Positions 1 through 54,617 of a stretch of 64,000 bases of DNA are shown piece by piece. The position numbers and the translations under genes are program-made. Each line of letters starts with the position of its first letter. Positions within the stretch are counted from its first letter, which is position 1. This DNA comes from a virus (Duplodnaviria > Heunggongvirae > Uroviricota > Caudoviricetes), in IMG/VR virus record IMGVR_UViG_2851955134_000009; one strand, 5' to 3'. Below the pieces are notes generated by a model that worked only from the letters and a program-made list of their open reading frames with translations, was not told the origin of the DNA and did not search any database.

Positions 1-1053
1 TTACGGGGTAATGCCAACCGCTGCCGCCACTTTGTCGCCACTTGGCAGCGTTGCCAGAGGATTGAAACGGAGCGCCGTTTCTAGATGATCCGGTGCCAGA
101 TGTGCGTAACGCATAGTCATTTTTATATCGTGGTGTCCGAGAATTTTTTGTAAGGCCAGAATGTTTCCACCCGACATCATGAAGTGCGCCGCAAACGTAT
201 GGCGCAGAACGTGTGTGAGTTGACCGCGAGGGAGCACGATAGACGTTTTTTCCATCACGGATAAAAATTGAAAATAGCAGTCTGTGAAGAAATTGAACCC
301 ATCAAGCGCCATGATCTCTTCGTAAAGCTCTTTACTGATAGGGATGCTTCTGTTTTTCTTCCCCTTCGTTCTGACAAAGGTAATTCGGTATTTGGTCACC
401 TGTGAGCGGGTAAGATTTACGGCTTCACGCCAGCGTGCGCCTGTGCTTAAGCATATCTTAACTACCAGTGCCAGAATTGGGTCCTGACGTTTGCAATCAG
501 CCAGCAATTCAACAATCTGCTCATGGGTAAGCCATGCCATCTCTTTTTCTGCGATGGTGAATTTTCGCATGTTCTCCAGTGGGTTCGGATACGACCATTC
601 GCCCAGACGGGATAGTTCGCTAAAAACACTACTTAGATAGCTTTGCTCCAGGTTAATGGTGACCGGGCTTGCTCCTTTCTTCCATTTCTCGCTGAAGTAG
701 ATCTCGCCTGTCAGGCGTTTATCTCGATAGTGGGCAAACATTTTAGAGGTGAGATCGGTTGCAAGAGGATTGCCCAGAGCGTCAACCATCAACAGCAATT
801 TGTCATAGACATGCTGCCCAGCTGTCAGAGATTTACCATGTAGTTTGAACCATAGCTCAACCACGTCTTTCAGTGTTCGACGATCCACTGATTCACCCAG
901 CCAGGGCTTTGCTTCGGTTTCTTCCATCGTGTGGCGCTCAAAAGCCAGTGCTTCGCCTTTGGTGGCGAATTGTTTACGCACACGACGCCCACTTCGTCCG
1001 GCGGGGTAACATTCGCAAAGCCATTTCCCTGTGGTTAGTTTTCGTACTGCCAT
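1..1053 (-). CDS. int: Tyrosine integrase (P2/186-type)
   Basis: 350-aa ORF with C-terminal HxxR...Y catalytic region (LRHTFAAHF ... MRYAHL); stop codon at window position 1-3, so the attachment site lies outside the window. Confidence 0.9.
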   Translation of the reverse strand: MAVRKLTTGKWLCECYPAGRSGRRVRKQFATKGEALAFERHTMEETEAKPWLGESVDRRTLKDVVELWFKLHGKSLTAGQHVYDKLLLMVDALGNPLATDLTSKMFAHYRDKRLTGEIYFSEKWKKGASPVTINLEQSYLSSVFSELSRLGEWSYPNPLENMRKFTIAEKEMAWLTHEQIVELLADCKRQDPILALVVKICLSTGARWREAVNLTRSQVTKYRITFVRTKGKKNRSIPISKELYEEIMALDGFNFFTDCYFQFLSVMEKTSIVLPRGQLTHVLRHTFAAHFMMSGGNILALQKILGHHDIKMTMRYAHLAPDHLETALRFNPLATLPSGDKVAAAVGITP

Positions 1054-1135
1054 AAAAAGCCCTCATATCAGAGGGCTAAATTTAACTGTATATGTAACCA
1101 GTAATCAATGTGTGATTACTATGAAACATACATTG

Positions 1136-2812
1136 CTAAGCAACATGTAGTTCATCGTTGGCGGAAGTGGCTGCTTTGCGCTCCTGCTCAATAGCTAGAG
1201 ACTCTCTATATTCTTTCGCCTCTGCAAACATTGTCCAGTGGGCGTTGATGTTCATGTCTTCAATAACTGATTTGATTTCTTTTAAATTTACGTTAAAAAA
1301 CTCTTTTCGTGAGTTAATTTTATTGACCTGCTTTTCGTTGAAAACTTTATGCAGATGGTTTTCTAATGATGGTGCATCATCACTATAAATCATCGCATGA
1401 ACATCGAACGAAAAAGGAACACTAGCATCTCCGAGTTCACGAACACGATCAAGTGGTTCAAGGCGGCGTGTCATTCCAATTTTATATACATCTTCGCCAA
1501 ATGAACCAATATTACTAATGATATAGACGTGGCCTGATCTGGTTTGTTGAGCCATAGAAATAGCTCGTTGATTTTTAGCTTCAGCTTCTTCATATTTTAA
1601 CTGTAGTTCAGCTATTTTTTGCTCTAAAGCTAAGCGTTGTTCTTCATTTGCAAGCATAAGTTCTTTCGTTGCTTTATTTATAGCTTGCTGAATAGCTTTT
1701 TCTTCTTTTTCAGCTTCTTTTATCGCTTTTTCATATTCTCTACGAGCTCTTTCCTCTTCACGAAGCTGTTCTTTAATCCTTCTTTGCTCTTCTTTTTCTT
1801 CGAGCATAATTTCATTAACTGCTACACCCCATTTTAGCTCGTTGAGTCTTGCCTGAAGATAGATGTCACTTATTTTTGCGGACCTAAAGGCAGAGCCATT
1901 GTAATTTACTAGTTGAAATGCATCTTTTATTTCTTGGGAAAGTTTTCCAAAATTGTTGTGTTTGACTTTTGATAAAATACTGTCAACTCTTCCATTGAAG
2001 GCATCCAAAACAAAGTTTATGGCAGTATTACGCCTGTTTTGCTCAACATAATCACACGAAGCAGCTTTATTAGTTTTTATTAATGATTTGGTTAACTCTC
2101 TGGCTTTTTGTAATTCCTTGCCTGCATCTGTAAATTCATAATTTTCTGCCAGCTCATCAAGTACACTACGGTTAGGGATGATCCATTCATCACCATAACC
2201 TTCAATTTTATTTTTCATTGATTTTGCAACTGCTTCATATTTTTCTGCAAACTCTTTAGCTTCATATGCTGAACCAGCAATCTCCTTTGCTCTTTCTTCT
2301 GCATCAGAAATAATTTTTACTGCATTGTCATTAGCATTTGAGATTAGCTCATTTGCTTTATTATTAGCATTATCAAGACGTTCTTTGGCTTTCAGGCGTG
2401 CATCGCGAGCGTCTTTGGTGATTGCTATAGCTTCGCTATTAGCGTTGCTTATTGTCATCTGAGCTTGATAATTTGCTTCGTTTACTGTTTTAGCCGCCTT
2501 AATTTGGGCTTCATCTATTTTTTGCTTGGCTATTGAGTCCGCATTTTTTATCTTATTCTCTGCATCCATTACTGCGCTGTGCAATTCTTCGTATTGCCAC
2601 AATGGTGCTGCTCGCCCTTCAAGCTCTGATAATTCTCGTACGGTCTGTGCTAGTTTTTCTTGATTTTCAATCAGTTGGTTAGAAAGGGCTATGTTGTTAG
2701 CTGTCAGGTTATCTATAGCCGCTTTGTGTTTTTTACTTTGTTTAAATAATATTACAGCTAGAACAGGGGCGAGAAATGCTAATAAGAGTATAACGATGGC
2801 AAATGAATTCAT
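1136..2812 (-). CDS. Membrane-anchored coiled-coil protein with C-terminal T5orf172/GIY-YIG-like domain (cargo)
   Basis: 558 aa; N-terminal TM helix, long K/E/A-rich coiled coil, C-terminal YIISNIGSFGEDVYKIGMTRR...HxxxF block; ATG with AAGGA RBS; visibly lower GC than flanks. Confidence 0.7.
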   Translation of the reverse strand: MNSFAIVILLLAFLAPVLAVILFKQSKKHKAAIDNLTANNIALSNQLIENQEKLAQTVRELSELEGRAAPLWQYEELHSAVMDAENKIKNADSIAKQKIDEAQIKAAKTVNEANYQAQMTISNANSEAIAITKDARDARLKAKERLDNANNKANELISNANDNAVKIISDAEERAKEIAGSAYEAKEFAEKYEAVAKSMKNKIEGYGDEWIIPNRSVLDELAENYEFTDAGKELQKARELTKSLIKTNKAASCDYVEQNRRNTAINFVLDAFNGRVDSILSKVKHNNFGKLSQEIKDAFQLVNYNGSAFRSAKISDIYLQARLNELKWGVAVNEIMLEEKEEQRRIKEQLREEERARREYEKAIKEAEKEEKAIQQAINKATKELMLANEEQRLALEQKIAELQLKYEEAEAKNQRAISMAQQTRSGHVYIISNIGSFGEDVYKIGMTRRLEPLDRVRELGDASVPFSFDVHAMIYSDDAPSLENHLHKVFNEKQVNKINSRKEFFNVNLKEIKSVIEDMNINAHWTMFAEAKEYRESLAIEQERKAATSANDELHVA

Positions 2813-2832
2813 TTTAAAATCCTTTTACTATA

Positions 2833-3429
2833 TTAATTCGAGACTATTGTACTTCTTATACAAGCAACCACTTCAATATCAGAAAATGCACATTCAAAGC
2901 TATTCTCTGCTGTTGTAATTTTAATCATTCCTTTAGGAAGCCTTGTGATTTTTCGAATGGAATAGGTTCCGTCGATATTGATTAACCAGTTTCCATCAAG
3001 TACTTCAGAAAATTTTTGATCACAAATGTATGTGACGAGTCCATCCTGAACAACAATTGGTGATGAAAGGTTTGCAGGAAGAAATGATGAATCGAAGACA
3101 TATGAACCGTCTTCAATCATTTTGCCTGCGGCAAGGCGAAACTTAACAAGCTCTTCTGTAGCTGCTGTCAGCGAGCTTTGCTTAAGGCCTTGTCCGGTAG
3201 TTAACCATTTGAGGGAGGTTCCTGTTTCAAGAGCACATTGGATTATCCAGTCAGCAGGAAATGTATCCCGCAAATACCTGTTCGCTAGTGTGCTTTTTGA
3301 TACTTCCAAGTGATCAGCTAAAGCCTGTCGTGTCGTAAAGCCATAGGCTTCGACTAATCGCTCAATCGCAGCCTTACCACCTTTATTGGGATTTATTTTG
3401 ATCTCACTTGGGTACTTTGATTTTGACAT
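2833..3429 (-). CDS. cI: CI-type lysogeny repressor (phage 186 CI-like)
   Basis: 198 aa; N-terminal HTH (AIERLVEAYGFTTRQALADHLEVSKSTLANR); divergent from apl/cII as in the 186 switch. Confidence 0.8.
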   Translation of the reverse strand: MSKSKYPSEIKINPNKGGKAAIERLVEAYGFTTRQALADHLEVSKSTLANRYLRDTFPADWIIQCALETGTSLKWLTTGQGLKQSSLTAATEELVKFRLAAGKMIEDGSYVFDSSFLPANLSSPIVVQDGLVTYICDQKFSEVLDGNWLINIDGTYSIRKITRLPKGMIKITTAENSFECAFSDIEVVACIRSTIVSN

Positions 3430-3524
3430 ATCTCTTTTGCGATCCTAGTATCAGTTTTGTACCCAATTGGGTACTTGTCACGATTACTACAGGCTCACCA
3501 CAAGCCAATAGGAGATGTTGCATC

Positions 3525-3746
3525 ATGACCCCTAACATTTCAATAACTCTGAATACGCCACACGTCACAATCGAGCGTTATAGCGAACTTACTGGTCTTT
3601 CAATCGACACAATCAACGATATGTTGGCGGATGGTCGCATTCCTCGGCATCGTCTTCGTAAAGACAAGAAAAGAGAAAAGGTAATGATCAACCTTGCTGC
3701 TCTTACCGTTGATGCACTTACTGATTGCAATGTTGTATTCAACTAG
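3525..3746 (+). CDS. apl: Apl/Cox-like excisionase and transcriptional regulator
   Basis: 73-aa ORF from internal ATG ([14 protein letters not shown]...), first gene of the rightward lytic operon opposite cI. Confidence 0.6.
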
Positions 3747-3778
3747 TTCCATTTTGGGATACATCAGAGGTGTCGACC

Positions 3779-4288
3779 ATGTTTGATTACCAAGTTTCCA
3801 AACATCCACATTTTGATGAAGCCTGTCGTGCATTCGCACTGCGCCACAATCTGGTGCAACTGGCAGAACGTGCGGGCATGAATGTGCAGATTCTGCGGAA
3901 CAAGCTGAACCCAGCTCAACCTCATTTATTAACCGCACCAGAAATCTGGCTGCTTACCGATCTGACTGAAGATTCAACGTTGGTAGATGGTTTTCTGGCA
4001 CAGATTCATTGTCTGCCATGTGTACCGATTAATGAGGTAGCAAAAGAGAAACTGCCGCATTACGTCATGAGCGCAACTGCAGAGATCGGGCGTGTTGCAG
4101 CAGGTGCGGTATCTGGTGATGTAAAAACTAGTGCCGGTCGTCGTGATGCTATCAGCAGCATTAACTCTGTAACACGACTGATGGCGCTGGCTGCTGTTTC
4201 ATTGCAAGCCCGTTTACAGGCTAATCCTGCGATGGCGAGTGCAGTTGATACCATGACTGGCCTTGGTGCTTCATTCGGTTTGCTGTGA
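3779..4288 (+). CDS. cII: CII-like lysogeny establishment regulator (186 CII-like)
   Basis: Internal ATG with AGAGG RBS; [20 protein letters not shown]...GASFGLL closely resembles 186 CII as recalled. Confidence 0.75.
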
Positions 4289-4295
4289 GGTGTTT

Positions 4296-4592
4296 ATGCT
4301 GACGAAAGAACCATCATTTGCATCGCTGCTGGTAAAACAAAGCCCGGCAATGCACTACGGTCACGGCTGGATCACGGGTGAGGATGGAAAACGCTGGCAT
4401 CCATGTCATTCACAAGATGAATTGCTGTCTGAATTGACCACGAGGAAACGGAGAAAGTCCAAATGTATGCGGCAGAAAGTGAAGTGGTTTATCAGTTTCG
4501 TTACAGAGGGGAGAGTTATTCAGTACCTGAAGATGATTTGCTCTGTTGCTATCCGTCATTGTCGGGCGATGGCAGTTACTTTTTCACGTTAA
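4296..4592 (+). CDS. Hypothetical protein (fil-position ORF); 3' end uncertain
   Basis: ATG with GAGG RBS; overlaps 4463..4687 in another frame, so one of the two may be mis-framed. Confidence 0.3.
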   Translation: MLTKEPSFASLLVKQSPAMHYGHGWITGEDGKRWHPCHSQDELLSELTTRKRRKSKCMRQKVKWFISFVTEGRVIQYLKMICSVAIRHCRAMAVTFSR

Positions 4593-4687
4593 AGGATGGG
4601 ACGTTTTTACGGGGAGAGCAGGTTAAAGAGACGATACGAAAAAATGTATCTCCTCTTGAGCGTTACCGTAAGAACAAAGAACGATAG
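4463..4687 (+). CDS. Hypothetical protein
   Basis: 74-aa ORF with GGAGAAAG RBS 7 nt upstream of ATG. Confidence 0.45.
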   Translation: MYAAESEVVYQFRYRGESYSVPEDDLLCCYPSLSGDGSYFFTLKDGTFLRGEQVKETIRKNVSPLERYRKNKER

Positions 4688-4709
4688 CTGCGTTTGGGGG
4701 ATATGAAGT

Positions 4710-5051
4710 ATGGCAATTAATGGCGCTGCAGCAACTGTTCCATTAAGCCCCGGTGAACGCCTGAATGGACTTAATCACATTGCGGAGTTAAGGGCGAAAG
4801 TTTTTGGCCTGAATATTGAGTCAGAGCTTGAGCGGTTTATTAAAGATATGCGTGATCCACGGGATATCAATAATGAACAAAATAAACGGGCACTGGCTGC
4901 CATATTCTTTATGGCAAAAATTCCAGCTGAACGTCATAGCATCAGCATTAATGAGCTGACCACTGACGAAAAGCGGGAGCTGATTAAAGCAATGAATCAT
5001 TTTCGTGCAGTGGTGAGCTTATTTCCCAGACGGCTAACCATGCCGAATTAA
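4710..5051 (+). CDS. Hypothetical protein
   Basis: 113-aa ORF, G-rich RBS upstream of ATG, within early operon. Confidence 0.5.
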   Translation: MAINGAAATVPLSPGERLNGLNHIAELRAKVFGLNIESELERFIKDMRDPRDINNEQNKRALAAIFFMAKIPAERHSISINELTTDEKRELIKAMNHFRAVVSLFPRRLTMPN

Positions 5052-5118
5052 CCAACTAATGAAATTAATGGCGTAAACCCGCCGGGCATCCCTTTATCTA
5101 AATTCAGGAGAATTGATT

Positions 5119-5352
5119 ATGCGTAATATTGAAACCCTCACGACTAAAACCGGACCGGATGACGCAGGGCTTAATATTTTACTGACAGAGGCTCGTCTGG
5201 AAGAACGCCGGGCAAGGGCTGAAGCAATGGCTGCTCGCCTTGATAGCCTGGCGTGTCATATCTCATCCCACCAGCTAAACCACGTGGAAGCGGCAGAACT
5301 GCTGCGCGTGACTGCTGAAGCAATCCAGAACGAAGCGCAGGAGATCCACTAA
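5119..5352 (+). CDS. Hypothetical protein
   Basis: ATG at 5119 with AGGAG RBS (track start at 5113 is TTG); 77 aa. Confidence 0.5.
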   Translation: MRNIETLTTKTGPDDAGLNILLTEARLEERRARAEAMAARLDSLACHISSHQLNHVEAAELLRVTAEAIQNEAQEIH

Positions 5353-5579
5353 TGGCTGATGCAATGGATCTCGTACAGCAGCGCGTTGAAGAAGAACGCC
5401 AGCGCCATATCCGTGCAGCCCGTGCCAAATCACCGGGCGTGTCACGCGTACTTTGCATTGAATGTGAAGCGCCAATTCCGCCAGCACGACGCCGCGCCAT
5501 TCCGGGAGTGCAGCTTTGCATTACCTGTCAGGAAATCGCAGAACTGAAAGGCAAACATTACAACGGAGGTGCTGTATGA
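5352..5579 (+). CDS. TraR/DksA-family C4 zinc-finger protein
   Basis: 75 aa with CxxC-x17-CxxC (CIECEAP...CITCQEI) at C-terminus; start overlaps upstream stop (TAATG). Confidence 0.7.
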   Translation: MADAMDLVQQRVEEERQRHIRAARAKSPGVSRVLCIECEAPIPPARRRAIPGVQLCITCQEIAELKGKHYNGGAV

Positions 5580-6433
5580 GCACCATCCTGAAATGGGCGG
5601 GAAATAAAACCGCCATTATGCCAGAACTGAAAAAATACCTTCCTGCTGGCCCGCGACTGGTTGAACCTTTCGCGGGTTCCTGTGCTGTGATGATGGAAAC
5701 GGATTATCCCAGCTATCTGGTTGCGGATATTAATCCTGATTTAATCAACCTCTATAAAAAGGTTGCCGCTGATTGTGAATCGTTTATATCTCGCGCCAGA
5801 GTTTTATTTGAGATCGCAAACAGGGAGGTGGCTTATTACAACATAAGGCAGGAGTTTAACTGCTCAACTGAAATTACTGATTTCATGAAAGCGGTATATT
5901 TCCTGTATCTCAATCGTCACGGTTACCGTGGTTTATGTCGCTATAACAAGAGCGGGCATTTCAACATTCCCTACGGTAATTATAAAAATCCGTATTTCCC
6001 TGAAAAAGAACTTCGCACATTTGCAGAAAAAGCCCAGCGAGCAACGTTTATCTGCGCCAGCTTTGATGAAACGCTGGCGATGTTGAAGGCGGGAGATGTG
6101 GTGTATTGCGATCCGCCATATGACGGTACGTTTTCCGGCTATCACACTGATGGTTTCACTGAAGATGACCAGTATCACCTGGCATCCGTTCTTGAACATC
6201 GGTCATCAGAAGGACATCCGGTCATTGTTTCTAACAGTGACACATCCCTGATCCGTTCGCTGTATCGCAATTTTACTCACCACTATATCAAGGTAAAACG
6301 CAGCATCGGTGTGGCAGCTGGCGAGGGTAAATCAGCAACAGAAATCATTGCTGTTTCCGGGCCGCGCTGCTGGATGGGATTTGATTATTCGCGTGGCGTG
6401 GATAGTTCTGCCGTGTACGGAGTACGTGCATGA
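5576..6433 (+). CDS. dam: DNA N6-adenine methyltransferase (Dam family, orphan)
   Basis: ILKWAGNK N-terminal motif and DPPY catalytic motif ([10 protein letters not shown]); GGAGG RBS; no adjacent restriction gene. Confidence 0.85.
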
Positions 6434-8844
6434 GTCATGCCGATATGAACAACTGCTGCGGCTTTAACGAGGCTGCCGCAGCATTCTCATGGAACAGCCC
6501 GAAAAAGGCCATTAACCCTTATCTGGACCCGGCGGAAGTTGCGCCGGTTTCTACGCTTTCAAACCTGATCACTCTGTACGCTGCCGATAACGAGCAGGAA
6601 CAGTTGCGCCGCGAGGCACTGAGTGATCAGGTCTGGGAGCGTTATTTCTTTAATGAATCACGTGATCCTGTCCAGCGCGAAATGGAGCAGGATAAGCTCA
6701 TTAGCCGGGCAAAGCTGGCGCATGAGCAGCAGCGTTTTAATTCAGACATGGTCATTCTGGCGGACGTCAACGCCCAGCCTTCCCATATCAGCAAGCCGCT
6801 GATGCAACGTATTGAATACTTCAGCAGCCTGGGCAGGCCAAAGGCTTATTCCCGCTATTTACGTGAGACGATTAAGCCATGTCTGGAACGACTGGAGCAT
6901 GTACGCGACAGTCAGCTATCTGCATCTTTTCGCTTTATGGCAAGCAATGAAGGGCTGGACGGCCTGCTGATCCTGCCTGAAATGAGTCAGGATCAGGTGA
7001 AACGCCTGTCCACCCTGGTAGCTGCGCATATGAGTATGTGCCTTGATGCAGCTTGTGGTGATTTGTATGCCACCGATGACGTTAAGCCAGAAGAAATCCG
7101 CAAGACATGGGAAAAGGTGGCAGCGGAAACCCTGCGTCTGGATGTCATCCCACCTGCGTTTGAGCAACTCCGTCGGAAAAGAAACCGCCGTAAACCCGTG
7201 CCCTATGAACTCATTCCGGGTTCGCTGGCGCGTATGTTGTGCGCCGACTGGTGGTATCGGAAATTATGGAAGATGCGTTGCGAATGGCGGGAAGAGCAGT
7301 TGCGCGCTGTTTGCCTGGTCAGCAAAAAAGCATCTCCTTATGTCAGCTATGAAGCCGTGATGCATAAACGTGAGCAGCGCCGTAAGTCGCTGGAGTTTTT
7401 CCGTTCTCATGAACTGGTGAACGAAGACGGCGACACGCTGGACATGGAGGATGTGGTAAACGCCAGCAGCAGCAACCCTGCGCATCGCCGCAATGAGATG
7501 ATGGCCTGTGTTAAAGGTCTGGAGCTTATCGCGGAAATGCGCGGTGACTGCGCCGTTTTCTACACTATCACCTGTCCGTCGCGTTTCCATTCCACGCTAA
7601 ATAACGGCAGACCAAACCCGACCTGGACAAACGCGACGGTAAGACAAAGCAGCGATTATCTGGTCGGCATGTTTGCTGCATTTCGTAAGGCGATGCACAA
7701 AGCCGGGTTGCGCTGGTATGGCGTGCGGGTGGCTGAGCCGCATCATGATGGCACAGTTCACTGGCACCTGTTGTGTTTCATGCGCAAAAAAGACCGCCGT
7801 GCCATCACTGCATTACTGCGTAAGTTTGCCATCCGTGAAGACCGCGAGGAGCTGGGCAATAACACTGGGCCGCGCTTTAAGTCTGAGTTGATTAACCCGC
7901 GCAAAGGAACGCCGACAAGCTACATCGCGAAATATATCAGTAAGAACATTGACGGTCGTGGTCTGGCTGGCGAGATCAGCAAGGAAACGGGTAAATCTCT
8001 GCGTGATAACGCTGAATACGTGAATGCCTGGGCGTCTCTGCATCGTGTTCAGCAATTCCGCTTCTTTGGTATTCCGGGGCGTCAGGCTTACCGTGAACTT
8101 CGCTTGCTGGCTGGTCAGGCGGCAAGGCAACAGGGTGACAAAAAAGCAGGTGCGCCGGTACTGGATAACCCGCGTCTTGATGCCATTCTGGCTGCTGCTG
8201 ATGCTGGTTGTTTTGCCACCTACATCATGAAGCAGGGCGGCGTACTGGTTCCCCGTAAATATCACCTCATCAGAACCGCTTATGAAATCAACGAAGAGCC
8301 GACCGCCTATGGCGATCACGGCATTCGTATTTATGGCATCTGGTCACCCATTGCAGAGGGCAAGATCTGCACTCATGCAGTGAAGTGGAAAATGGTTCGT
8401 AAAGCCGTTGACGTTCAGGAGGCGGCAGCCGACCAGGGCGCTTGCGCCCCTTGGACTCGTGGCAATAACTGTCCCCTTGCTGAAAATTTGAACCAACAAG
8501 GGAAAGACAAATCAGCTGATGGGGATACCAGGACGGACATTACCCGCATGGATGACAAGGAGTTGCACGATTACCTGCACAGTATGAGCAAAAAAGAGCG
8601 CCGGGAACTGGCTGCAAGGTTACGCCTGGTGAAACCGAAACGGCGTAAAGACTACAAACAGCGAATTACAGACCATCAGCGACAGCAGCTCGTCTATGAA
8701 CTGAAGTCCAGAGGATTTAATGGCAGCGAGAAAGAGGTCGATTTACTCCTTCGCGGCGGCAGTATTCCGTCAGGAGCAGGCCTGCGTATCTTCTATCGGA
8801 ACCAGCGTTTGCAGGAAGATGATAAGTGGCGAAACCTGTATTAA
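6430..8844 (+). CDS. A: Replication initiation endonuclease (P2 gpA family, rolling-circle)
   Basis: 804 aa; active-site tyrosine region [15 protein letters not shown]; ATGA overlap with dam. Confidence 0.85.
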
Positions 8845-8997
8845 TTACGCGGGTTAACAATTCGTGCTCTTAATAATACCAGGCATATCAGGCTAATGAA
8901 CGTAAAAAAACGTTTTACATCAGTAAGATTATTATATACTGTAAATATAAACAGTGGTTATGTATACAGTATTGCTTGTGGTGTCATAGGAGGAAAG

Positions 8998-9186
8998 ATG
9001 CAGGACTATTTTTTGGAGTCTTTGAAGCTCCAGCGCATTGATTTTTTTCTTAAGCTTGTAGCGGCTAGTGAGTGTAGTGATGAAGAGAAGGGGCTGGCTT
9101 TGCAGTGGGTTTCTGAACTGACAGATGAACTCATGGCAAAAATCAGAACCCACGAATACAACCGCTCAATGGATGTCATCAGCTGA
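8998..9186 (+). CDS. Hypothetical small protein
   Basis: 62-aa ORF from ATG with AGGAGG RBS. Confidence 0.45.
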   Translation: MQDYFLESLKLQRIDFFLKLVAASECSDEEKGLALQWVSELTDELMAKIRTHEYNRSMDVIS

Positions 9187-9196
9187 GGTGACCTTT

Positions 9197-9430
9197 ATGC
9201 GCATTGAAATAATGATCGATAAAGAGCAGAAGATTAGCCAGTCTACCTTGGACGCCCTTGAATCCGAGCTTTACCGCAATCTGCGCCCCCTGTATCCCAA
9301 AACGGTAATTCGCATCCGCAAAGGTAGCTCTAACGGTGTGGAACTGACCGGACTGCAACTGGACGAAGAAAGAAAACAAGTGATGAAGATTATGCAGAAG
9401 GTGTGGGAAGACGACAGCTGGCTGCATTAA
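9197..9430 (+). CDS. DinI-like SOS-response modulator
   Basis: 77 aa, MRIEIMIDKE...VWEDDSWLH matches the DinI pattern (MRIEV...W.ES..W); GAGGTG RBS. Confidence 0.7.
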   Translation: MRIEIMIDKEQKISQSTLDALESELYRNLRPLYPKTVIRIRKGSSNGVELTGLQLDEERKQVMKIMQKVWEDDSWLH

Positions 9431-9589
9431 GAAAAGTTGCTGGCGTCTGAACTTGGTTCTGGCGTCAGCAAGGTTGAACAACGAGTACAGTGAGGCGTTA
9501 GGTGTGGCGTTTATTTGATGAGTGAACGCCCGTTCTGCGACAGGTTCGGAGATTAAGGTTGAAACTACGGGCAAAATACCATCTTTTTC

Positions 9590-10015
9590 CTACTTAATTG
9601 AGTCCAGTAACAAGTTACAGTTACTCTCATTGTAGAGAGAACGAGCAATTAGTGTTACCTGCTTTCCATTCATTCCCGGCTTATCCCATAACACAGCTTC
9701 TTGCGACGCCACAAATTCAGCATAATCAATTATGCGTTGTTCGTGATCTGGTTCCTCATAGCCAAAGTATGAGAGCGCATCGTTGTAAGCGTGGTAAGCT
9801 GCTTTCTGTAATATCTTGATATCGGCTGTAGGTACTTGCTCCGTGTAGCTAGGATCTAATTGTGTGCTACTGCCATAGAATGCACATGAAAGGTAAGATA
9901 TTGATTTCTGTTGAGCTTTAGTTCCTTTCTCATAGTTTTTAGCTGTTACCGCCTGAACAGGGACGCTAACAAAGCTTGCAACCAGAATTAAAATTAATAC
10001 GTAAAAGCTTTTCAT
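9590..10015 (-). CDS. Secreted protein of unknown function (cargo)
   Basis: 141 aa with N-terminal signal peptide (MKSFYVLILILVASFVSVPVQA); low GC; GAGGT RBS. Confidence 0.6.
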   Translation of the reverse strand: MKSFYVLILILVASFVSVPVQAVTAKNYEKGTKAQQKSISYLSCAFYGSSTQLDPSYTEQVPTADIKILQKAAYHAYNDALSYFGYEEPDHEQRIIDYAEFVASQEAVLWDKPGMNGKQVTLIARSLYNESNCNLLLDSIK

Positions 10016-10288
10016 TTTGACCTCAGCCGAAACGTTAGAGAGACTATCGAAATTTGTAAAACCCGTGGCGATTCAGTTTGAGATCCTCCCCCTTACATGA
10101 TTTTTAATCAAATATATGCTTTTGTAAGCATACCTGTTAACCGAATTATTTATTTTTAGAGATCTTCCGACATACTGATTATGCCCGCTGAGGAGTTCAC
10201 CTTGCGTAAAGTCCGATTCGCTTTACTCGTCTGTGCATGTCTATGCTGCATGAGATTGCATGATCGTTTGAGGATCGTTTTTGCTAAG

Positions 10289-10312
10289 GCCCGCCAGAAC
10301 TGGCGGGCTTTT
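10289..10312 (+). terminator. Rho-independent terminator
   Basis: GCCCGCC-AGAACT-GGCGGGC hairpin followed by TTTT. Confidence 0.6.
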
Positions 10313-10357
10313 GCGTAGATCATGCTCCTGCATGAAAACCACTACATAAAGCGGGCA

Positions 10358-10376
10358 GGCGTGGCGGGGATACGAG
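10358..10376. other. Candidate cos (cohesive end) site of the P2-like phage
   Basis: GGCGTGGCGGGGA matches the start of the P2/186 19-nt cos sequence as recalled (GGCG[A/T]GGCGGGGAAAGCA.); lies between replication and head genes as expected. Confidence 0.4.
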
Positions 10377-10462
10377 CGCGCGTATTAGGTTTTATTTGAG
10401 AGCTTGTTAAATATGATGTTTCACAATTAGAATTGTCCGTAAATCATTCTGTTGGAGGCATT

Positions 10463-10645
10463 ATGGAATACTTAAGCGAAATCATTAGTTTTTTGGCAGG
10501 GGCGGGTATCAGTTGGGCTATTACTTTCAATGTGTATAATTACAAAGTAAAGCAAATTTGTATGAACCAAAGTTCTCCCATTCAAAATGGAAATACAGTG
10601 ACAAACGGAAGCATTGTCGGTAGAGATCAGACTAATTCTCACTAA
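10463..10645 (+). CDS. Small membrane protein, first gene of candidate cassette
   Basis: 60 aa from ATG with GGAGG RBS; one TM helix (IISFLAGAGISWAITF); C-terminal NGSIVGRDQTN motif repeated in the next ORF. Confidence 0.5.
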   Translation: MEYLSEIISFLAGAGISWAITFNVYNYKVKQICMNQSSPIQNGNTVTNGSIVGRDQTNSH

Positions 10646-10658
10646 GGGAGTGATTGGT

Positions 10659-11225
10659 GTGTTTAGTAAACAGGAGCAATCAGGTAATAGAGTAAGAAAT
10701 GGGAGTATTGTTGGAGGGAGTCAAACAAACCACATTACCAATATAGTTCGTAGTAGTAATCGAACTTTAGAGCGTTTGTACCAAAAGTTCTCTCAAGAAG
10801 ATGGAACTATGGGGGGGCAGGATTTTTGTGATAAGTTAAAGCACTATTTAGCCTCGGATACCAATCCAGATATAAGAGATTTAGCTACAAAGCTAACTGA
10901 TAGTGATAGAACTGAATTAATTTACTTTGCAACTGCTCTTAAAGAGCAAGCCCTCAAGGCGATAATGAAGTGCCAATCTTCCAAAACCGCACAAGAAATA
11001 TATGCGTTTATTCTTGATAAAATTCATGCTGATTTTATGCTCAAAATTACACCTCTTATTCAGAAGGATGAGGACCGAGTAATTGTTGATGAAAAAATTT
11101 CATTGGTATTAGAAAATATTAGTGAAATGTTGGGCGATAATTTGTTAAACTTATCCGAAAAGGATCTTTTGGGACTGTTGTATTTTTTAGGCGGAAATTG
11201 TTATATAAGGTGGGATAAATGTTAG
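10659..11225 (+). CDS. Hypothetical protein, candidate cassette component
   Basis: About 188 aa from GTG at 10659 (GTG at 10650 also possible); low GC; N-terminal NGSIVGGSQTN repeat; ends overlapping next start. Confidence 0.55.
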   Translation: MFSKQEQSGNRVRNGSIVGGSQTNHITNIVRSSNRTLERLYQKFSQEDGTMGGQDFCDKLKHYLASDTNPDIRDLATKLTDSDRTELIYFATALKEQALKAIMKCQSSKTAQEIYAFILDKIHADFMLKITPLIQKDEDRVIVDEKISLVLENISEMLGDNLLNLSEKDLLGLLYFLGGNCYIRWDKC

Positions 11226-11719
11226 TTTATCATCCAGCATATGATGCCTATCATTGTCTATTTAGAATGATGGCAATTATGGAAAATACAAATCGGCTTG
11301 AGATTGATAAGCTTAAAATATTGGATTTTTACATTTTATTTCCTGCGTTATTAAGTGAAGTGAAAATGCCGAGAGAATTTATTAAAATTAAAAAAACAGC
11401 AAAACTACATCATAATGAATATCATGATCCATTGAGTCCAAGGATTATTTTCAAGGAAATGCGTCAAATACAGGATGCAGCACTAAAATGTATGCTTGCG
11501 ACTGGTTATATTGATTCTGATGATTTCAGCAATGGTTTTGTCTCAAGAACAAATAAACAATTACCACTGAACCTAGCCTTAGAAATGGGCGTTTTTTTAG
11601 AGCGCAAAGAACCGTTTTCATCTTTCATTACACAAAAGATGGCTAAATTTGATCTGACTGGACCTGATGGATTGAAGGCTAGAACTAAACTTATGGAGTA
11701 TAGATATGACACTTATTAA
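11219..11719 (+). CDS. Hypothetical protein, candidate cassette component
   Basis: 166 aa; ATG with AAGGTGGG RBS; 7-nt overlap with upstream gene and 14-nt overlap with the ATPase gene. Confidence 0.6.
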   Translation: MLVYHPAYDAYHCLFRMMAIMENTNRLEIDKLKILDFYILFPALLSEVKMPREFIKIKKTAKLHHNEYHDPLSPRIIFKEMRQIQDAALKCMLATGYIDSDDFSNGFVSRTNKQLPLNLALEMGVFLERKEPFSSFITQKMAKFDLTGPDGLKARTKLMEYRYDTY

Positions 11720-13610
11720 GCCTACTCTTATTGTAACCAGATTAACAGTTTTTCAACACGGACATCGTGCATTTGATTGTGAATTCCACAAAGGTGTTAA
11801 CATTATTCGTGGGCGAAATAGTTCTGGTAAAACTACAATAATGGATATGCTGGCATTTTCATTGGGAGCTGAAAATATCAGGTGGAAACCACAGGCTTTG
11901 AAATGCACTAGAACAATCGTTGAAGTGCTTCTCAATAATGAGAAAGCATGCTTTAAACGAGAGATATCTATTGAGCAAATGCGACCTCTTTATATTTATT
12001 GGGGAGCGATGGATAAGGCTTTGAATGCTGGGGAACACGAATGGGATTTATACCCATTCAAGAGAACTGAGAGTAAAATTAGCTTCACCCAAGCTATTTT
12101 CAATGCATTATCAATGCCCTTGGCACAAGGTGCTGGTTCTTCTAATTTGACATTGCATCAGATTTTACGTGTCTTGTATGCAGATCAGCCGTCGTTACAT
12201 AGTCCAATTTTTCGATTTGACAGATTTGATAATGCTCTTACCCGTGAGACGGTAGGTGGATACTTATGTGGTGTTTATAATGATGAGTTGTACAATGCAC
12301 AACTTTCTTTAAGAGATGTTGAGACCGAACTAACAAAGAAAGTTACTGAATTAAAAAGTATCTTTACTGTATTAGGTAGATCTGGACAGGCTCCAGATTT
12401 ACAAGGTATTGATGAGAAAATAAAGCATCTAAATAAATTGAGAGCTATTGAGAATGTAAAACTAACAAATAGAGCTATTATAACTAATGAAGAAGGGGCT
12501 GATTCTGAAAAACGAATGGGTACTATCAGGGAGGAACTCAATGAAGCTAAAAGGAAATTATCTTCCCTAAAAGATAAAATCCAATCTTTGGATTTTGAAA
12601 TTTCAGATTCTGATATGTTTATATCAGAATTAAATGAGCGGCTAAAAAACTTAGAACAGTCTCGAGAAACGCGTGCTATATTTGATAGTATGAATTTTGA
12701 TTTTTGCCCTAGTTGTCTTTCCAAAATAGATAAGGCTCATAATGATCATGTTTGTCATCTATGTAAAGTGGAACAATTAGATGATAAAGCTGAAAATCAG
12801 TTATTAAGAATGAAAAATGAATTAACTCTTCAAATCAAAGAATCTCTTCAATTAATGGATAGAAGAAAAGAAGAGTTGGTAAGATTAAAGCGAGATGTTC
12901 CTTTAGCTGAGAGTGAATTAAAAAGGCTTGAACAGGATTATTTCAAAGAGTCACACTATTGGTCTTCACCGCAAGAGTTAGCTGTAGGTAAAATATATAG
13001 GGAAATTGGACGGCTTGATGAAGAAATAAAAAGAGCTTATGAAGATAAGAAGCTTATTGTTGTTATTAATGAACTTCAAGAGCGTCGCGATGAACTTCAG
13101 GCGGAAAAAAATAGACTTGATGATCTTATTGAACTTTATGAAGAAAAAGAGGAAGTTCTTAAAGATAAAATTTATGCTTCAGTGAGCTCAATAGCACAAG
13201 AGCTTTTACAAGAAGATTTGCCTTTGCAAAAAGAGTTTATGTCTCCTGAAAGTGTGGAGTTTAGTTTTACTGATAATAGCGTTTATGTGAATGGTAGTAA
13301 GAACTTTTCTGAAAGTTCAGCTGTAGTATTAAGGCATATATTCCATTTGGCACTACTTTCAGCAAGTATAGAGAACCACTCAATGCGACTTCCAAGATTT
13401 ATGATGTTAGATGGGATCGACGATGGTGGAATGGAAAAAGAACGGAGTCACAATTTACAGGAAATAATAATTGATGAGTGCTCACGTTATGAACATGATT
13501 ATCAGTTGATATTTGCAACATCTGAAATAAATCCCAAATACAGTGAGAGTGAATATATTGTTGGTGAGTATTATTCGCCAGATAATTATTCATTGAAAAT
13601 AATTGAGTAA
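11706..13610 (+). CDS. SMC/Rad50-like ABC ATPase with long coiled-coil insert and CxxC...CxxC hook-like motif
   Basis: 634 aa; Walker A GRNSSGKTT near N-terminus, about 300-aa K/E-rich coiled coil with CPSC-x10-CHLC, C-terminal Walker-B-like FMMLDGIDD; no TOPRIM or nuclease domain visible. Confidence 0.75.
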   Translation: MTLIKPTLIVTRLTVFQHGHRAFDCEFHKGVNIIRGRNSSGKTTIMDMLAFSLGAENIRWKPQALKCTRTIVEVLLNNEKACFKREISIEQMRPLYIYWGAMDKALNAGEHEWDLYPFKRTESKISFTQAIFNALSMPLAQGAGSSNLTLHQILRVLYADQPSLHSPIFRFDRFDNALTRETVGGYLCGVYNDELYNAQLSLRDVETELTKKVTELKSIFTVLGRSGQAPDLQGIDEKIKHLNKLRAIENVKLTNRAIITNEEGADSEKRMGTIREELNEAKRKLSSLKDKIQSLDFEISDSDMFISELNERLKNLEQSRETRAIFDSMNFDFCPSCLSKIDKAHNDHVCHLCKVEQLDDKAENQLLRMKNELTLQIKESLQLMDRRKEELVRLKRDVPLAESELKRLEQDYFKESHYWSSPQELAVGKIYREIGRLDEEIKRAYEDKKLIVVINELQERRDELQAEKNRLDDLIELYEEKEEVLKDKIYASVSSIAQELLQEDLPLQKEFMSPESVEFSFTDNSVYVNGSKNFSESSAVVLRHIFHLALLSASIENHSMRLPRFMMLDGIDDGGMEKERSHNLQEIIIDECSRYEHDYQLIFATSEINPKYSESEYIVGEYYSPDNYSLKIIE

Positions 13611-13614
13611 TTGT

Positions 13615-13645
13615 ATATGTGGCTGCTATTTTTGTAGCCACATAT
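13615..13645. terminator. Perfect 10-bp hairpin between convergent ATPase and Q genes (possible bidirectional terminator)
   Basis: ATATGTGGCT-(11 nt loop)-AGCCACATAT immediately after the ATPase stop; no clean U-tract. Confidence 0.35.
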
Positions 13646-13675
13646 AAATTACTGTCTGAACTTTATTGTTTTTGT

Positions 13676-20154: not shown

Positions 20155-20650
20155 ACGCTGCCTTGTCGGGGCTGTGCTGGCTATTGCTGCCACGCTGCCG
20201 GGTTTTCAGCAGCTTCACACCTCCGTGGAGGGACTGAAACTGATCGCCGATTACGAAGGCTGTCGTCTGCAGCCGTATCAGTGCAGCGCGGGTGTCTGGA
20301 CCGACGGCATTGGTAATACATCGGGCGTCATTCCCGGCAAAACAATCACGGAACGACAGGCAGCAGAAGGGCTGATCTCCAACGTGCTGCGTGTGGAGCG
20401 GGCGCTGGAAAGGTGTGTGAAGCAACAGCCACCGCAGAAGGTGTATGACGCTACGGTGTCGTTTGCCTTCAACGTGGGGACGGGCAATGCCTGTAGTTCC
20501 ACGCTGGTGAAATTGCTCAATCAGCGGCGCTGGGCGGATGCGTGCCGACAGTTGCCGCGCTGGGTGTATGTAAAAGGTGTGTTTAATCAGGGGCTAGATA
20601 ACCGCCGAGCGCGGGAGATGGCCTGGTGCCTTAAAGGAGCTGGACTATGA
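20135..20650 (+). CDS. Lysozyme/endolysin with N-terminal signal-anchor (SAR-type)
   Basis: 171 aa; hydrophobic N-terminus (LVGAVLAIAATLPG) followed by a lysozyme-like E...D...T region (YEGCRLQPYQCSAGVWTDGIGNT). Confidence 0.75.
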   Translation: MNPSIVKRCLVGAVLAIAATLPGFQQLHTSVEGLKLIADYEGCRLQPYQCSAGVWTDGIGNTSGVIPGKTITERQAAEGLISNVLRVERALERCVKQQPPQKVYDATVSFAFNVGTGNACSSTLVKLLNQRRWADACRQLPRWVYVKGVFNQGLDNRRAREMAWCLKGAGL

Positions 20651-21075
20651 TACGTGCGCTGGCGGTAGTGGCGGCGCTGGCACTCGTTGCGCTGGGCTGG
20701 CAGTCGTGGCGGCTTAACAGCGCCAGCCATACCATCGAAACGCAGCGCGCGGCGCTGAAAAGTAAAGCGCACGAACTAACGAAGAAAAATAGCCAGCTGA
20801 TCAGTCTGTCCATTCTGGCTGAAACCAACAACCGGGAGCAGGCGCGGCTCTACGCCGAAGCAGAACAGACCAGCGCACAGCTGAGACAACGACAACGCCG
20901 GATCGAGGAACTGAAACGTGAGAACGAGGATTTACGCCACTGGGCTGATACTCCTTTGCCTGCTGACATTATCCGGCTGCGGGAACGTCCGGCACTCACC
21001 GGAGGTGCAGCTTACCGTCAGTGGTTGTCCGCGAGTGACGCCGTGTCGGCTGGAGCAGGCAGCACCGCGCACTAA
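20647..21075 (+). CDS. lysB: i-spanin (Rz-like, LysB)
   Basis: 142 aa, N-terminal TM then charged coiled coil; contains embedded lysC in +1 frame. Confidence 0.75.
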   Translation: MIRALAVVAALALVALGWQSWRLNSASHTIETQRAALKSKAHELTKKNSQLISLSILAETNNREQARLYAEAEQTSAQLRQRQRRIEELKRENEDLRHWADTPLPADIIRLRERPALTGGAAYRQWLSASDAVSAGAGSTAH

Positions 21076-21229: not shown

Positions 21230-21802
21230 TTACATTTCAGGTTCCGTTATGACAGTCCCAACAGGGTGATAGCGGTAGATCGTTGACAGTCCAATATCAT
21301 AGATAATTGCCAGCCGCTTTCTGTCATACCCTTTCTGGAGCAATCTTGCGATCTGCTCATGCTGCTCCTTCGTCAGTTTCGGGCGACGTCCTCCAACTCT
21401 CCCTTGTGCTCGCGCAGCAGCCAGTCCTGCCAGCGTGCGCTCAACTATCAGTTCACGCTCCATTTCTGCCAGTGCACCCATCATATGAAAAAAGAACCTT
21501 CCCATCGGAGTGCTGGTATCGATTGAATCCGTCAGACTGCGAAAATTGACACCTTTTGCGCGTAGCTCTTCTGTGAGAGCAATGAGGTGTTTCATTCTTC
21601 TACCCAACCGATCCAGCTTCCAGACCACCAATGTATCCCCTCTTTTAAGGCACTTTAAAGCGCGTTTCAGGCCTGGTCGTTCCGACTTGGTTCCGCTCAT
21701 TTTGTCCTCAAAAATCTGTTCACATCCTGCGCACATTAATGCATTGCGTTGCAAATCTGTGTTTTGGTCATTTGTTGACACACGTATGTAGCCAATCAGC
21801 AT
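21230..21802 (-). CDS. gin: Serine DNA invertase (Gin/Hin/Cin family)
   Basis: 190 aa from ATG at 21802 (MLIGYIRVSTNDQ...); resolvase catalytic N-terminus and C-terminal HTH; adjacent to invertible tail-fibre segment. Confidence 0.9.
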   Translation of the reverse strand: MLIGYIRVSTNDQNTDLQRNALMCAGCEQIFEDKMSGTKSERPGLKRALKCLKRGDTLVVWKLDRLGRRMKHLIALTEELRAKGVNFRSLTDSIDTSTPMGRFFFHMMGALAEMERELIVERTLAGLAAARAQGRVGGRRPKLTKEQHEQIARLLQKGYDRKRLAIIYDIGLSTIYRYHPVGTVITEPEM

Positions 21803-50840: not shown

Positions 50841-52610
50841 ATGACCCCGGCACTGACTGAAAAACTTGTTGAAACAGCCCGCGCGGCACGTAATGCGGGG
50901 CATGGTAAACGCGGTGCAATATACGACGCTGCCTGTGCTGAACTTGGCATGTCCCGCGCCACTCTGCTGCGCAGGCTGAAGGAGGTCTCTGTGACTGATA
51001 AACGCAAAAAACGCGCCGATGCCGGACGCAGCACCCTGACCCGCGACGAAGCCGCGCTGATATCTGCCACACTACGTGAGGCCACCCGCAAGAACGGTAA
51101 GCGTCTCTATTCCATCGCGGATGCAGTGGAAACCCTGCGGGCTAACGGCTTTATCTCCGCAGGCAGAACAGATGAAACCACCGGTGAGTTTTTCCCGTTG
51201 TCCGAAGATGCCATCAGTCGTGCCCTGCGTAACTATGGCCTGCACCCGGAACAACTGGATGCCCCTGCACCGCATACCGAAGTGGCCAGTCTGCACCCCA
51301 ATCATGTCTGGCAGATTGACGCCTCACTCTGCACGCTTTACTACCTGAGCAATGGACATAAAGGGCTGCAGGTGATGGACAGCGCGAAATTCTACAAAAA
51401 CAAGCCCGCTAACCTTGCCCGTATCGCCAGTGACCGCGTGTGGAGTTACGAGATTACCGACCATGCCAGCGGCTGGATTTACGTTGAGTATGTGACGGGT
51501 GCGGAATCCGGTGAGAACCTGTGTTCTGTGCTTATCAACGCCATGCAGGAGCGTGGCGGCGCAGACGTGCTGCACGGCGTGCCAAAAATACTCTATCTCG
51601 ACCCCGGCTCGGCAAACACCGCGGGTATGACGAAAAACATGTGCCGCTCACTGGGCATCGACCTGATAGCGCACAAGCCGCATAACGCCCGCGCCACCGG
51701 ACAGGTGGAAAAGGCGCGTGACATTATCGAACGCAAGCTGGAGCCGGGTCTGAAGTTCCGGCCGGTTCACAGTCTGGAAGAACTCAACGCGCTGGCCGCG
51801 AAATGGCGCAGCCACTTTAACGCCACGGCTGTTCACAGCCGCCACGGTAAAACCCGCACGGATATCTGGCTGAAGATTACTGCTGAGCAGCTGAAAAAAG
51901 CGCCTTCCGTTGAGGTATGTCGTGAACTGGCTGTGGCGGCACCAGAACTCCGCAAAGTCACGCCAAAACTTCGTGTCTCGTTCCGGGGCACTGAATTTGA
52001 CGTATCAACGGTACCGGGCGTACTGGTCGGTGAAAAACTGATGATTACCCGTAACCCGTGGCGCAGCGATGTGGCACAGGTGGTTCTGACCGGTGAGGAC
52101 GGCCACGAGACGTTCTTCCTGGTCGAAGAGGTCAGAAAGAACGAGTTTGGCTTTGCTGAAGGCGCGGCGGTATTTGGCGAAAGTTACAAAGCCCTGCCGG
52201 AAACCCCGGCGCAGATGGCGGCAAAAGAAACCGAAGCGCTGGTCACCGGTACAGACAACGCCGCAGATGCAGCTGCCGCACGCAAGGCGAAGGCGCTGCC
52301 GTTCGGCGGGCGGCTTGACCCGTATAAACATATTGATGACGCCACACTTCCGGCCTGTATACCGAAGCGTGGTCAGGCCTCTGACGTACGCGGACCGCGC
52401 ACTGAACAGCGTCCCATGACTCATGTGGAGGCCGCGAAAGCCCTGCGCGGGAAGTTTAGCGCAAACGGCCTGACCTGGACGCCGGAACATTACCGCCAGT
52501 TAACAGCACAGTACCCGGACGGCGTACCGGAAGCCGCACTGGATGAAGTCATGGCCACGCTGACCACGCCGGCCCGCAGCAGCGTTATCAGCATTGTTAA
52601 CGGCAACTGA
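50841..52610 (+). CDS. DDE transposase (retroviral-integrase-type core), transposable-phage A-like
   Basis: 589 aa; N-terminal HTH; core with HVWQIDAS, YLDPGSANT and downstream E; followed by AAA+ partner. Confidence 0.8.
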   Translation: MTPALTEKLVETARAARNAGHGKRGAIYDAACAELGMSRATLLRRLKEVSVTDKRKKRADAGRSTLTRDEAALISATLREATRKNGKRLYSIADAVETLRANGFISAGRTDETTGEFFPLSEDAISRALRNYGLHPEQLDAPAPHTEVASLHPNHVWQIDASLCTLYYLSNGHKGLQVMDSAKFYKNKPANLARIASDRVWSYEITDHASGWIYVEYVTGAESGENLCSVLINAMQERGGADVLHGVPKILYLDPGSANTAGMTKNMCRSLGIDLIAHKPHNARATGQVEKARDIIERKLEPGLKFRPVHSLEELNALAAKWRSHFNATAVHSRHGKTRTDIWLKITAEQLKKAPSVEVCRELAVAAPELRKVTPKLRVSFRGTEFDVSTVPGVLVGEKLMITRNPWRSDVAQVVLTGEDGHETFFLVEEVRKNEFGFAEGAAVFGESYKALPETPAQMAAKETEALVTGTDNAADAAAARKAKALPFGGRLDPYKHIDDATLPACIPKRGQASDVRGPRTEQRPMTHVEAAKALRGKFSANGLTWTPEHYRQLTAQYPDGVPEAALDEVMATLTTPARSSVISIVNGN

Positions 52611-52620
52611 GGAGGGAAAC

Positions 52621-54086: not shown

Positions 54087-54617
54087 ATGGCAAAAAGTAC
54101 AAAAGGGGCAAAACGTATCAAGGCCGCAGCGGCACTCTGGGTACCAGGGACACGCGAAGAGGTCATTGAGGGAATCAGACTACTCGGTGACGCACAACGT
54201 GAACTGGTCAGGGCTGAAACAGAAATGAATGACGCCATTGGCGATATCACCGCACGTTATGCCCCGCTCACCGAGAGCCTGAAAAAACGCATGGCCGAAC
54301 TGCAGTCCGGTATCCAGACATGGTGTGAGGCGCACCGTGATGAACTGACCGGCAACGGGAAGGTGAAGTTCGCTAACCTTACCACCGGCGAGGTGCAGTG
54401 GCGAAACCGTCCGCCATCAGTCAGTATCCGTGGGGCGGATAATGTTATTGAATTACTGAGACGTCTGGGGCTTGAGCGCTTTATTCGTGTAAAAGAGGAA
54501 ATAAATAAAGACGCTATCCTGAATGAAAAAGAGGCCGTGAAAAATATTCCCGGTATTTCCATTAAAAGCGACATTGAGGATTTTTCAATAATTCCTTTTG
54601 AGCAGGATGTGCAGTAA
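54087..54617 (+). CDS. gam: Gam-like host-nuclease inhibitor
   Basis: 176 aa; strong similarity to Mu Gam as recalled (RIKAAAA...TEMNDAI...WCEANRDELT...SIRG...FIR.K.EINK.AIL...SDIEDFSIIPFEQ). Confidence 0.85.
   Translation: MAKSTKGAKRIKAAAALWVPGTREEVIEGIRLLGDAQRELVRAETEMNDAIGDITARYAPLTESLKKRMAELQSGIQTWCEAHRDELTGNGKVKFANLTTGEVQWRNRPPSVSIRGADNVIELLRRLGLERFIRVKEEINKDAILNEKEAVKNIPGISIKSDIEDFSIIPFEQDVQ

Follow-up and report, generated by a model that had tools for sequence, protein, structure and literature searches.

A divergent SNIPE-family gene between the repressor and integrase genes of a 186-like prophage of Escherichia coli

SNIPE is a single-gene, prophage-borne defence system of Escherichia coli. 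It was recovered as PD-lambda-1 in a functional selection in E. coli, the source being strain ECOR26 (RCP76574.1, 1503 bp, 500 amino acids), and HHpred assigned residues 197-252 of its product to DUF4041 and residues 357-448 to T5orf172 (PMC9519451, Vassallo et al. 2022); the study that characterised it in 2026 gave it the name SNIPE (PMC13190303, Saxton et al.). Here we compare SNIPE with a gene located at positions 1136..2812, on the minus strand, of a viral stretch of 64,000 nucleotides (IMG/VR record IMGVR_UViG_2851955134_000009, hereafter the window), which corresponds to E. coli AR_0085, NZ_CP029741.1, beginning at position 4163205. The gene lies in a 186-like myovirus prophage, between the repressor gene cI and the integrase gene int, and a preliminary description made from the letters alone had presented it as an uncharacterised candidate. 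It is indeed a defence-type gene, but one whose family mechanism is published and whose product already bears a name in public annotation. Judged from its sequence, the 558-amino-acid product is a divergent member of the SNIPE family, and the gene in all likelihood encodes a defence protein of that family made by the prophage in lysogens.

The properties of SNIPE relevant to this comparison are the following (PMC13190303). The protein is an inner-membrane nuclease whose N-out/C-in topology was determined by experiment. When its transmembrane helix is removed it becomes toxic, since it then makes double-strand breaks in host DNA that depend on E414, and the E414A substitution abolishes this toxicity. 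The DUF4041 domain confers DNA binding and contacts the phage's tape measure protein; gain-of-function mutations map to this domain and phage escape mutations to the tape measure protein, and the W257R change strongly increases defence against Bas14-type phages. SNIPE was found in proximity to the lambda tape measure protein and to ManYZ, the inner-membrane conduit of lambda, and its N-terminal region was modelled as a ManYZ adaptor. 32P-labelled lambda DNA is fragmented by SNIPE during injection, and an induced lambda prophage is unaffected. Only siphoviruses are targeted, and no tested myovirus was affected. Finally, the defence is direct and not abortive: cells that express SNIPE stay alive and keep growing when the multiplicity of infection is high, in contrast to those of the abortive-infection control PD-lambda-3.

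The reading frame of the gene is intact, begins with ATG and runs for 558 codons, the interval 1136..2812 including the stop. Both PADLOC models of PD-Lambda-1 match the product, PDLC03976 with an E value of 2.4e-120 (residues 106-550 against model positions 36-481 of 491) and PDLC03977 with 7.9e-117, so that together they cover residues 106-551; PHROG 1847 matches at 7e-133. The RefSeq product names are 'DUF4041 domain-containing protein' and, in newer annotations, 'SNIPE associated domain-containing protein'. The accession of the 558-residue protein was not found in the supplements of the SNIPE paper (PMC13190303).

When complete E. coli genomes were searched for distant matches at the DNA level, a second class of DUF4041 genes appeared, which matched in the nuclease region only. 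One of them, of 1503 bp and 500 codons (L001:4984-6486), is located between ren and the nin region of a lambdoid prophage of strain 118UI. Its product has E414, L253, E264, K305, E223, T319, W257, I308 and N250, all at the published positions, and because of these nine residues we took it as the reference SNIPE sequence. With this reference, BLASTP gave 50% identity over the C-terminal 293 residues (E 4e-77). The two proteins have the same domain order, namely a transmembrane anchor, a helical region, DUF4041, a linker helix and a GIY-YIG/T5orf172 nuclease. They differ in length, the protein from the window being 58 residues longer overall and about 70 residues longer in its N-terminal part, and in a conserved extra segment, residues ~195-265, that SNIPE does not have. 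They also differ in their carrier, since the SNIPE-type gene that we recovered sits in a lambdoid prophage and the gene studied here at the cI-int junction of a 186-like one. Identity decreases from 73% in the nuclease domain to 49% in the linker helix, 27% in DUF4041 and 14% both in the segment that precedes DUF4041 and in the N-terminal stalk. The same conservation gradient was reported for about 500 SNIPE homologues, whose N-terminal regions are hypervariable and 59% of which have one transmembrane helix (PMC13190303).

The nuclease domain spans residues 425-528 (positions 1229..1540, minus strand) and is supported by Pfam, by its identity to SNIPE and by its motif residues. Pfam T5orf172 matches at residues 427-520 (E 3e-17, 63.3 bits) and MUG113 at residues 443-520 (E 4e-20, 72.7 bits), both above the curated cut-offs, so the C-terminal T5orf172/GIY-YIG-like block proposed in the preliminary description is confirmed at the level of profiles. 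The GIY-YIG motif residues are all found: VYI at 429-431 (including Y430), YKIG at 443-446, R449/R450, E484, with which the catalytic E414 of SNIPE aligns, and N497/N500. In an alignment of 117 homologues from Enterobacteriaceae, Bacteroidota and Thermotogota, Y430, K444, G446, R449, R450, E484, N497 and N500 are invariant, I445 is nearly so and Y443 varies. When AlphaFold2 was run from a shallow alignment (28 sequences, 82-100% identity), the mean predicted local distance difference test score (pLDDT) was 51.5 and the model was unusable; with the 117-sequence alignment, to which the Bacteroidota and Thermotogota homologues had been added, it reached 74.4. In this second model the elements of the nuclease domain follow the order beta-beta-alpha-beta-alpha, which fits a GIY-YIG fold at moderate pLDDT. 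The PADLOC candidate PDC-S57 and stand-alone T5orf172 proteins have this nuclease domain in common with the protein (E 4.5e-20, residues 424-546); the PDC-S57 match is confined to it and leaves the DUF4041 region and the N-terminal part outside.

The remainder of the protein follows the architecture of the family. A transmembrane helix is predicted at residues ~4-23 (positions 2744..2803, minus strand), where the 19-residue Kyte-Doolittle mean rises to 3.16, as the preliminary description had expected; it is followed by five basic residues in the cluster KQSKKHK, and reference SNIPE has an equivalent helix. The protein is therefore predicted to cross the membrane once, N-out/C-in, with its bulk in the cytoplasm. 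Then comes a variable helical stalk rich in Ala, Lys, Glu and Asn (residues 24-204, positions 2201..2743, minus strand), and residues 3-203 form one continuous helix in the AlphaFold2 model (pLDDT 67-92). The globular domain that contains DUF4041 extends over residues ~205-335 (positions 1808..2200, minus strand). Its Pfam core, DUF4041 (PF13250), matches at residues 267-322 (E 3.1e-12, 46.6 bits for a cut-off of 27), so that both of the profiles anticipated for this protein are present, and the model places a small helical globular domain at ~217-335, with pLDDT values of 73-86 over residues 221-340. Eleven basic residues of this region and its border (K200, R238, K242, K246, R260, R261, R275, K284, R310, R322 and K327) are conserved among 95 diverse homologues. 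The last of them, K327 (codon 1832-1834), stands at the position of SNIPE W257, and a Lys or Arg is found there in 95 of the 95 diverse long-form homologues examined. The domain is joined to the nuclease by a charged linker (residues 336-424, positions 1541..1807, minus strand), modelled as helices 316-387 and 390-422, which contains 24% Glu and neither Pro nor Gly.

The preliminary description had also seen a long coiled coil in the protein. The long helices stand, being present in the AlphaFold2 model, but the coiled coil does not follow from their periodicity: the hydrophobic period of helix 110-204 is 3.6-3.65 residues (a signal reached by 0 of 300 shuffles) rather than the canonical heptad value of 3.5, and helix 331-424, rich in Glu, Lys and Arg, has no significant periodicity. 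Long helices are thus supported by the model, and coiled-coil character or oligomerisation of the SNIPE homologue is not established. Helical composition of this kind explains several names given to members of the family. The GenBank records ON470620 (L005), OM835953 and KP836356 (L013) carry the product name 'chromosome segregation ATPase', and a weak match to NCBIfam SMC_prok_A goes in the same direction, so that an SMC-like ATPase has to be considered; this match, however, scores 15.5 bits for a cut-off of 729.4 and involves the charged linker helix only, and Pfam shows no ATPase domain. We therefore give this explanation practically no credit and regard the name as refuted, an artefact of coiled-coil composition. 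Matches to DivIVA_Wag31 (22.3 bits, cut-off 260) and to V-type ATP synthase subunit E (17.6 bits, cut-off 280) were likewise rejected, as they reflect a compositional and helical resemblance of the N-terminal region only, and the names used by JGI for relatives, 'vacuolar-type H+-ATPase subunit H' or 'DivIVA', are helical-composition artefacts too. Some of the N-terminal regions with a transmembrane helix among SNIPE homologues were described as DivIVA-like or ATP synthase subunit b-like (PMC13190303); the weak matches to DivIVA and to the V-type subunit E fit this description, yet they remain far below the cut-offs.

We then considered the position of the gene, which bears on its expression. 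Upstream lies the gene for a 186-type CI repressor (2833..3429, minus strand; Pfam Phage_CI_repr and Phage_CI_C), and downstream that for a P2/186-type tyrosine integrase (1..1053, minus strand; Pfam Int_N and Phage_integrase); the gene for the CII regulator (3725..4288) is divergent to cI. Only 20 nucleotides separate the cI stop codon from the start of the SNIPE homologue, and this spacer contains a Shine-Dalgarno sequence, AAGGA (2820..2824, minus strand), 7 nucleotides from the ATG. In the annotation of phage 186, cI and int abut and form one lysogenic operon driven by pL and pE, and in phage P2 the C and int genes are 115 bp apart. The gene is thus an insertion at a normally short junction, as had been proposed, and by analogy with 186 it should be co-transcribed with the repressor gene, in one lysogenic transcription unit, in every lysogen. 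Its GC content of 37.0%, to be compared with 48.9% for int, 49.7% for the early region (3430-8844) and 52.3% for the whole window, agrees with the low-GC gene noticed at the outset.

Two observations concern the int side of this unit. Directly before the int ATG, a GC-rich hairpin with a 7-bp stem (AGCCCTC-TGATAT-GAGGGCT) and then TTTT are found at 1058-1077 on the minus strand, within a stretch that is conserved with prophages devoid of the cargo gene. Its 3' arm includes the likely Shine-Dalgarno sequence of int (GAGGG), and the hairpin could lower or block the expression of int from the lysogenic transcript. At the start of the window (1-59), the initial 40-44 nucleotides are split from the rest of int in some related prophages (L002, L007, L009 and L010) by extra genes, which lie between int and the attachment site. 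Among these genes are a 270-bp open reading frame, a gene for a DUF2971 protein and one for a Panacea-domain protein with a partner, and they mark another small site for cargo.

The cI-int junction itself behaves as a cargo site. Homology of the window to six related prophages stops at 1115-1135 and starts again at 3177-3250 in five of the six and, in E. coli W, at 3478, and these breakpoints indicate an exchanged low-GC block, made of the cargo gene and the 3' half of cI (1136..3176, GC 0.369). In line with the survey of int-cI junctions suggested at the start, the sampled related prophages hold other cargo there. The commonest is a gene for a 63-residue protein. Genes for 314-349-residue proteins of no known function are found in CFT073, KBN10P04869 and Klebsiella phage 4LV2017, always beside a CI of ~290-313 residues with a duplicated helix-turn-helix region, and E. 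coli W has a KAP-family NTPase gene that matches the PADLOC candidate PDC-S20 at 4e-82. Low GC content, a fixed junction and cargo that differs between relatives are also features of the hotspots of P2-like prophages, such as old/tin between A and Q, Z/fun and the integrase-primase interval. Unlike the classical A-Q hotspot, the cI-int junction is less populated and lies inside the lysogenic operon. A 2026 survey of P2-like prophages placed 8% of the defence systems in the integrase-primase interval (PMC13586616), and this interval is thus already recognised.

The spread of the gene was examined in genomes and in sequence collections. Among 5426 complete E. coli genomes, 164 (~3%) match window positions 1-4300 at a coverage of at least 80%, and the gene itself is present in 165, with at least 90% nucleotide identity in essentially all carriers; the two counts mean that nearly all E. 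coli copies lie at the cI-int junction. About 1170 further genomes match parts of 1-4300, typically int and/or the cII region, and do not have the gene. In the phage records vB_EcoM-813R9 and Klebsiella KP12 it occupies the same cI-int site, misnamed there as 'chromosome segregation ATPase', and such records speak for mobility with phages. Citrobacter, Salmonella, Klebsiella, Enterobacter, Raoultella and other genera have relatives of exactly 558 residues, with 83-85% protein identity. When 1.84 billion cluster representatives were searched exhaustively, 1409 matched at E <= 1e-30, and full-length relatives of ~50% identity come from a Synechococcus phage, from Marinitoga viruses and from many Bacteroides, Phocaeicola and Parabacteroides sequences; Synechococcus phage Ssp-JY37 has 52% identity over residues 45-541 and Marinitoga camini virus 2 has 55% over residues 145-553. 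The conserved core of these long-form DUF4041/T5orf172 proteins begins near residue 160, residues 1-160 being only 13-24% identical among them, and segment ~195-265 is common to the Bacteroides, Marinitoga and Synechococcus-phage homologues and absent from SNIPE. The long forms of Enterobacteriaceae, Bacteroidota, Thermotogota viruses and the Synechococcus phage thus constitute the subfamily to which the 558-residue protein belongs.

These data bear on the explanation that the gene has no role in defence and encodes either a GIY-YIG endonuclease that serves the prophage, of the homing or DNA-processing type, or a decaying and functionless passenger. T5orf172 domains are indeed found in many phage proteins of unknown role, and in AR_0085 the carrier prophage is disrupted by a Mu-like insertion. 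The reading frame, however, is intact and widely conserved (164 E. coli genomes; 83-85% protein identity across genera), and this conservation, together with the invariant motif residues, argues for selection. In addition, the gene occupies an accessory site that neither 186 nor P2 possesses and that in E. coli W holds a candidate defence gene (the PDC-S20 KAP NTPase) instead, and a membrane anchor is ill-suited to a homing endonuclease. We thus consider a function outside defence, or no function at all, to be very improbable.

We return to the reading of the gene as a SNIPE-family defence gene expressed in lysogens. The protein has, by sequence, the architecture of the SNIPE family with every nuclease motif residue intact, and the PD-Lambda-1 matches uphold the single-gene defence function that was among the initial proposals. 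Several points weigh against this reading. The experimental defence data come from the 500-residue reference protein, and the 558-residue variant is known from its sequence. DUF4041 is 27% identical to that of SNIPE and the N-terminal ~260 residues, which include the modelled ManYZ-adaptor region, about 14%, and the positions of SNIPE that contact the tape measure protein differ, with S292 for E223, K327 for W257 and Q320 for N250. Since these residues differ and the N-terminal region is unrelated, the targets and partners of SNIPE are not transferable to the 558-residue protein, and the latter probably has a different membrane partner and phage range. As for the nuclease fold, the pLDDT of the domain is 42-82 per 10-residue block, which gives moderate confidence only, and fold searches with the whole-protein model returned helical proteins only and did not match the GIY-YIG fold. 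An hhalign comparison of the nuclease sub-alignment (effective number of sequences, Neff, 1.6) with the I-TevI catalytic domain gave a probability of 0.1, a negative that carries no information, given a target of one sequence and a query of low diversity. Lastly, a consensus scan of the minus strand upstream of cI found no pL-like promoter, so that co-transcription rests on the analogy with 186. A profile search of Protein Data Bank sequences gave influenza HA2 helices only (E ~0.006, a compositional match) and hence no solved relative by sequence. As the fold searches gave no match, the assignment of a GIY-YIG fold relies on membership in the Pfam families, on the conserved motifs and on what has been published from HHpred and from E414A.

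How the protein might act can be proposed from the characterised homologue. It would be held auto-inhibited and tethered in the inner membrane. During genome injection by a phage, most likely a siphovirus, DUF4041 would engage the tape-measure-protein/DNA conduit, and the nuclease would cut the entering DNA, so that the cell would survive in a form of direct defence. The resident prophage and the host DNA would be spared, as neither of them ever goes through the site of injection. The same fold might instead act by abortive infection, the nuclease being released or activated after infection to degrade host and phage DNA and kill the cell, as the preliminary description had listed among its options. 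SNIPE without its transmembrane helix is highly toxic and breaks host DNA (PMC13190303), which implies an enzyme that is not sequence-selective. On the other hand, cells with the characterised homologue outlive infection at a high multiplicity, which those with PD-lambda-3 do not (PMC13190303), and the transmembrane anchor and domain order that keep the nuclease off the nucleoid are conserved in the 558-residue protein. Abortive infection is therefore improbable, and direct defence by a membrane-tethered SNIPE-family nuclease is the mechanism that we retain.

The rest of the prophage shows further features. A Mu-like transposable-phage block of ~37 kb (~21150-58600) splits the 186-like prophage at lysB, a gene that the annotation gives as a truncated pseudogene (~20647-20994). 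The block contains genes for a Gin-type recombinase (21230-21802), a DDE transposase (50841-52610), a MuB/ExeA-like protein (52594-53787), Gam (54087-54617) and Mor (57240-57638), with the genes for its tail and head located on the minus strand, and near 58770 the P2-type late genes begin again. In AR_0085 the carrier is thus probably a defective prophage. The classical P2 A-Q hotspot corresponds to 8845-13675 (GC 0.372) and contains an ABC-3C system at 10614-13610, with genes for a CTD9-domain protein (10614-11225), the middle component MC5 (11219-11719) and an ABC ATPase (11706-13610) that matches PADLOC LmuB at 1e-42. This ABC-3C/Lamassu-family system is a second defence system in the same prophage. 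Two further reading frames of the hotspot on the minus strand, 9179-9574 and 9590-10015 (131 and 141 amino acids), have no Pfam or PADLOC match, and RefSeq annotates only the latter, as a hypothetical protein. A Dam-like orphan adenine methyltransferase gene (5516-6433; PADLOC oMTase, 1.6e-110) is found immediately upstream of the gene for the replication endonuclease, an arrangement that several related prophages share.

Altogether, these data settle the annotation of the gene as a SNIPE-family defence nuclease, in place of a 'chromosome segregation ATPase' or of a hypothetical protein. As a defence gene carried by a prophage it is genuine but unremarkable, and it should not surprise a specialist, since publications already cover the family, how it works and how variable its N-terminal region is. 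By analogy with 186, the cI-int junction would be a cargo site expressed in lysogens. As the carrier is a myovirus and reference SNIPE is inactive on the tested myoviruses, the gene would be harmless to its own phage family. With nearly the same nuclease, an unrelated N-terminal adaptor and a diverged DUF4041 surface, the protein offers a natural comparison for the SNIPE model, and swaps of modules between the two could directly test if the N-terminal adaptor and DUF4041 set phage specificity. We put forward, tentatively and as a single proposal, that the long-stalk subfamily, in which residues 160-265 are conserved across phyla and the N-terminus is variable, may dock on an inner-membrane conduit other than ManYZ and may stop phages insensitive to SNIPE, and that the cargo gene and the C-terminal half of cI may form an exchangeable immunity-plus-defence cassette in 186-like prophages. 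If this were true, the protection conferred by the subfamily might reach ManYZ-independent siphoviruses or even other morphotypes.

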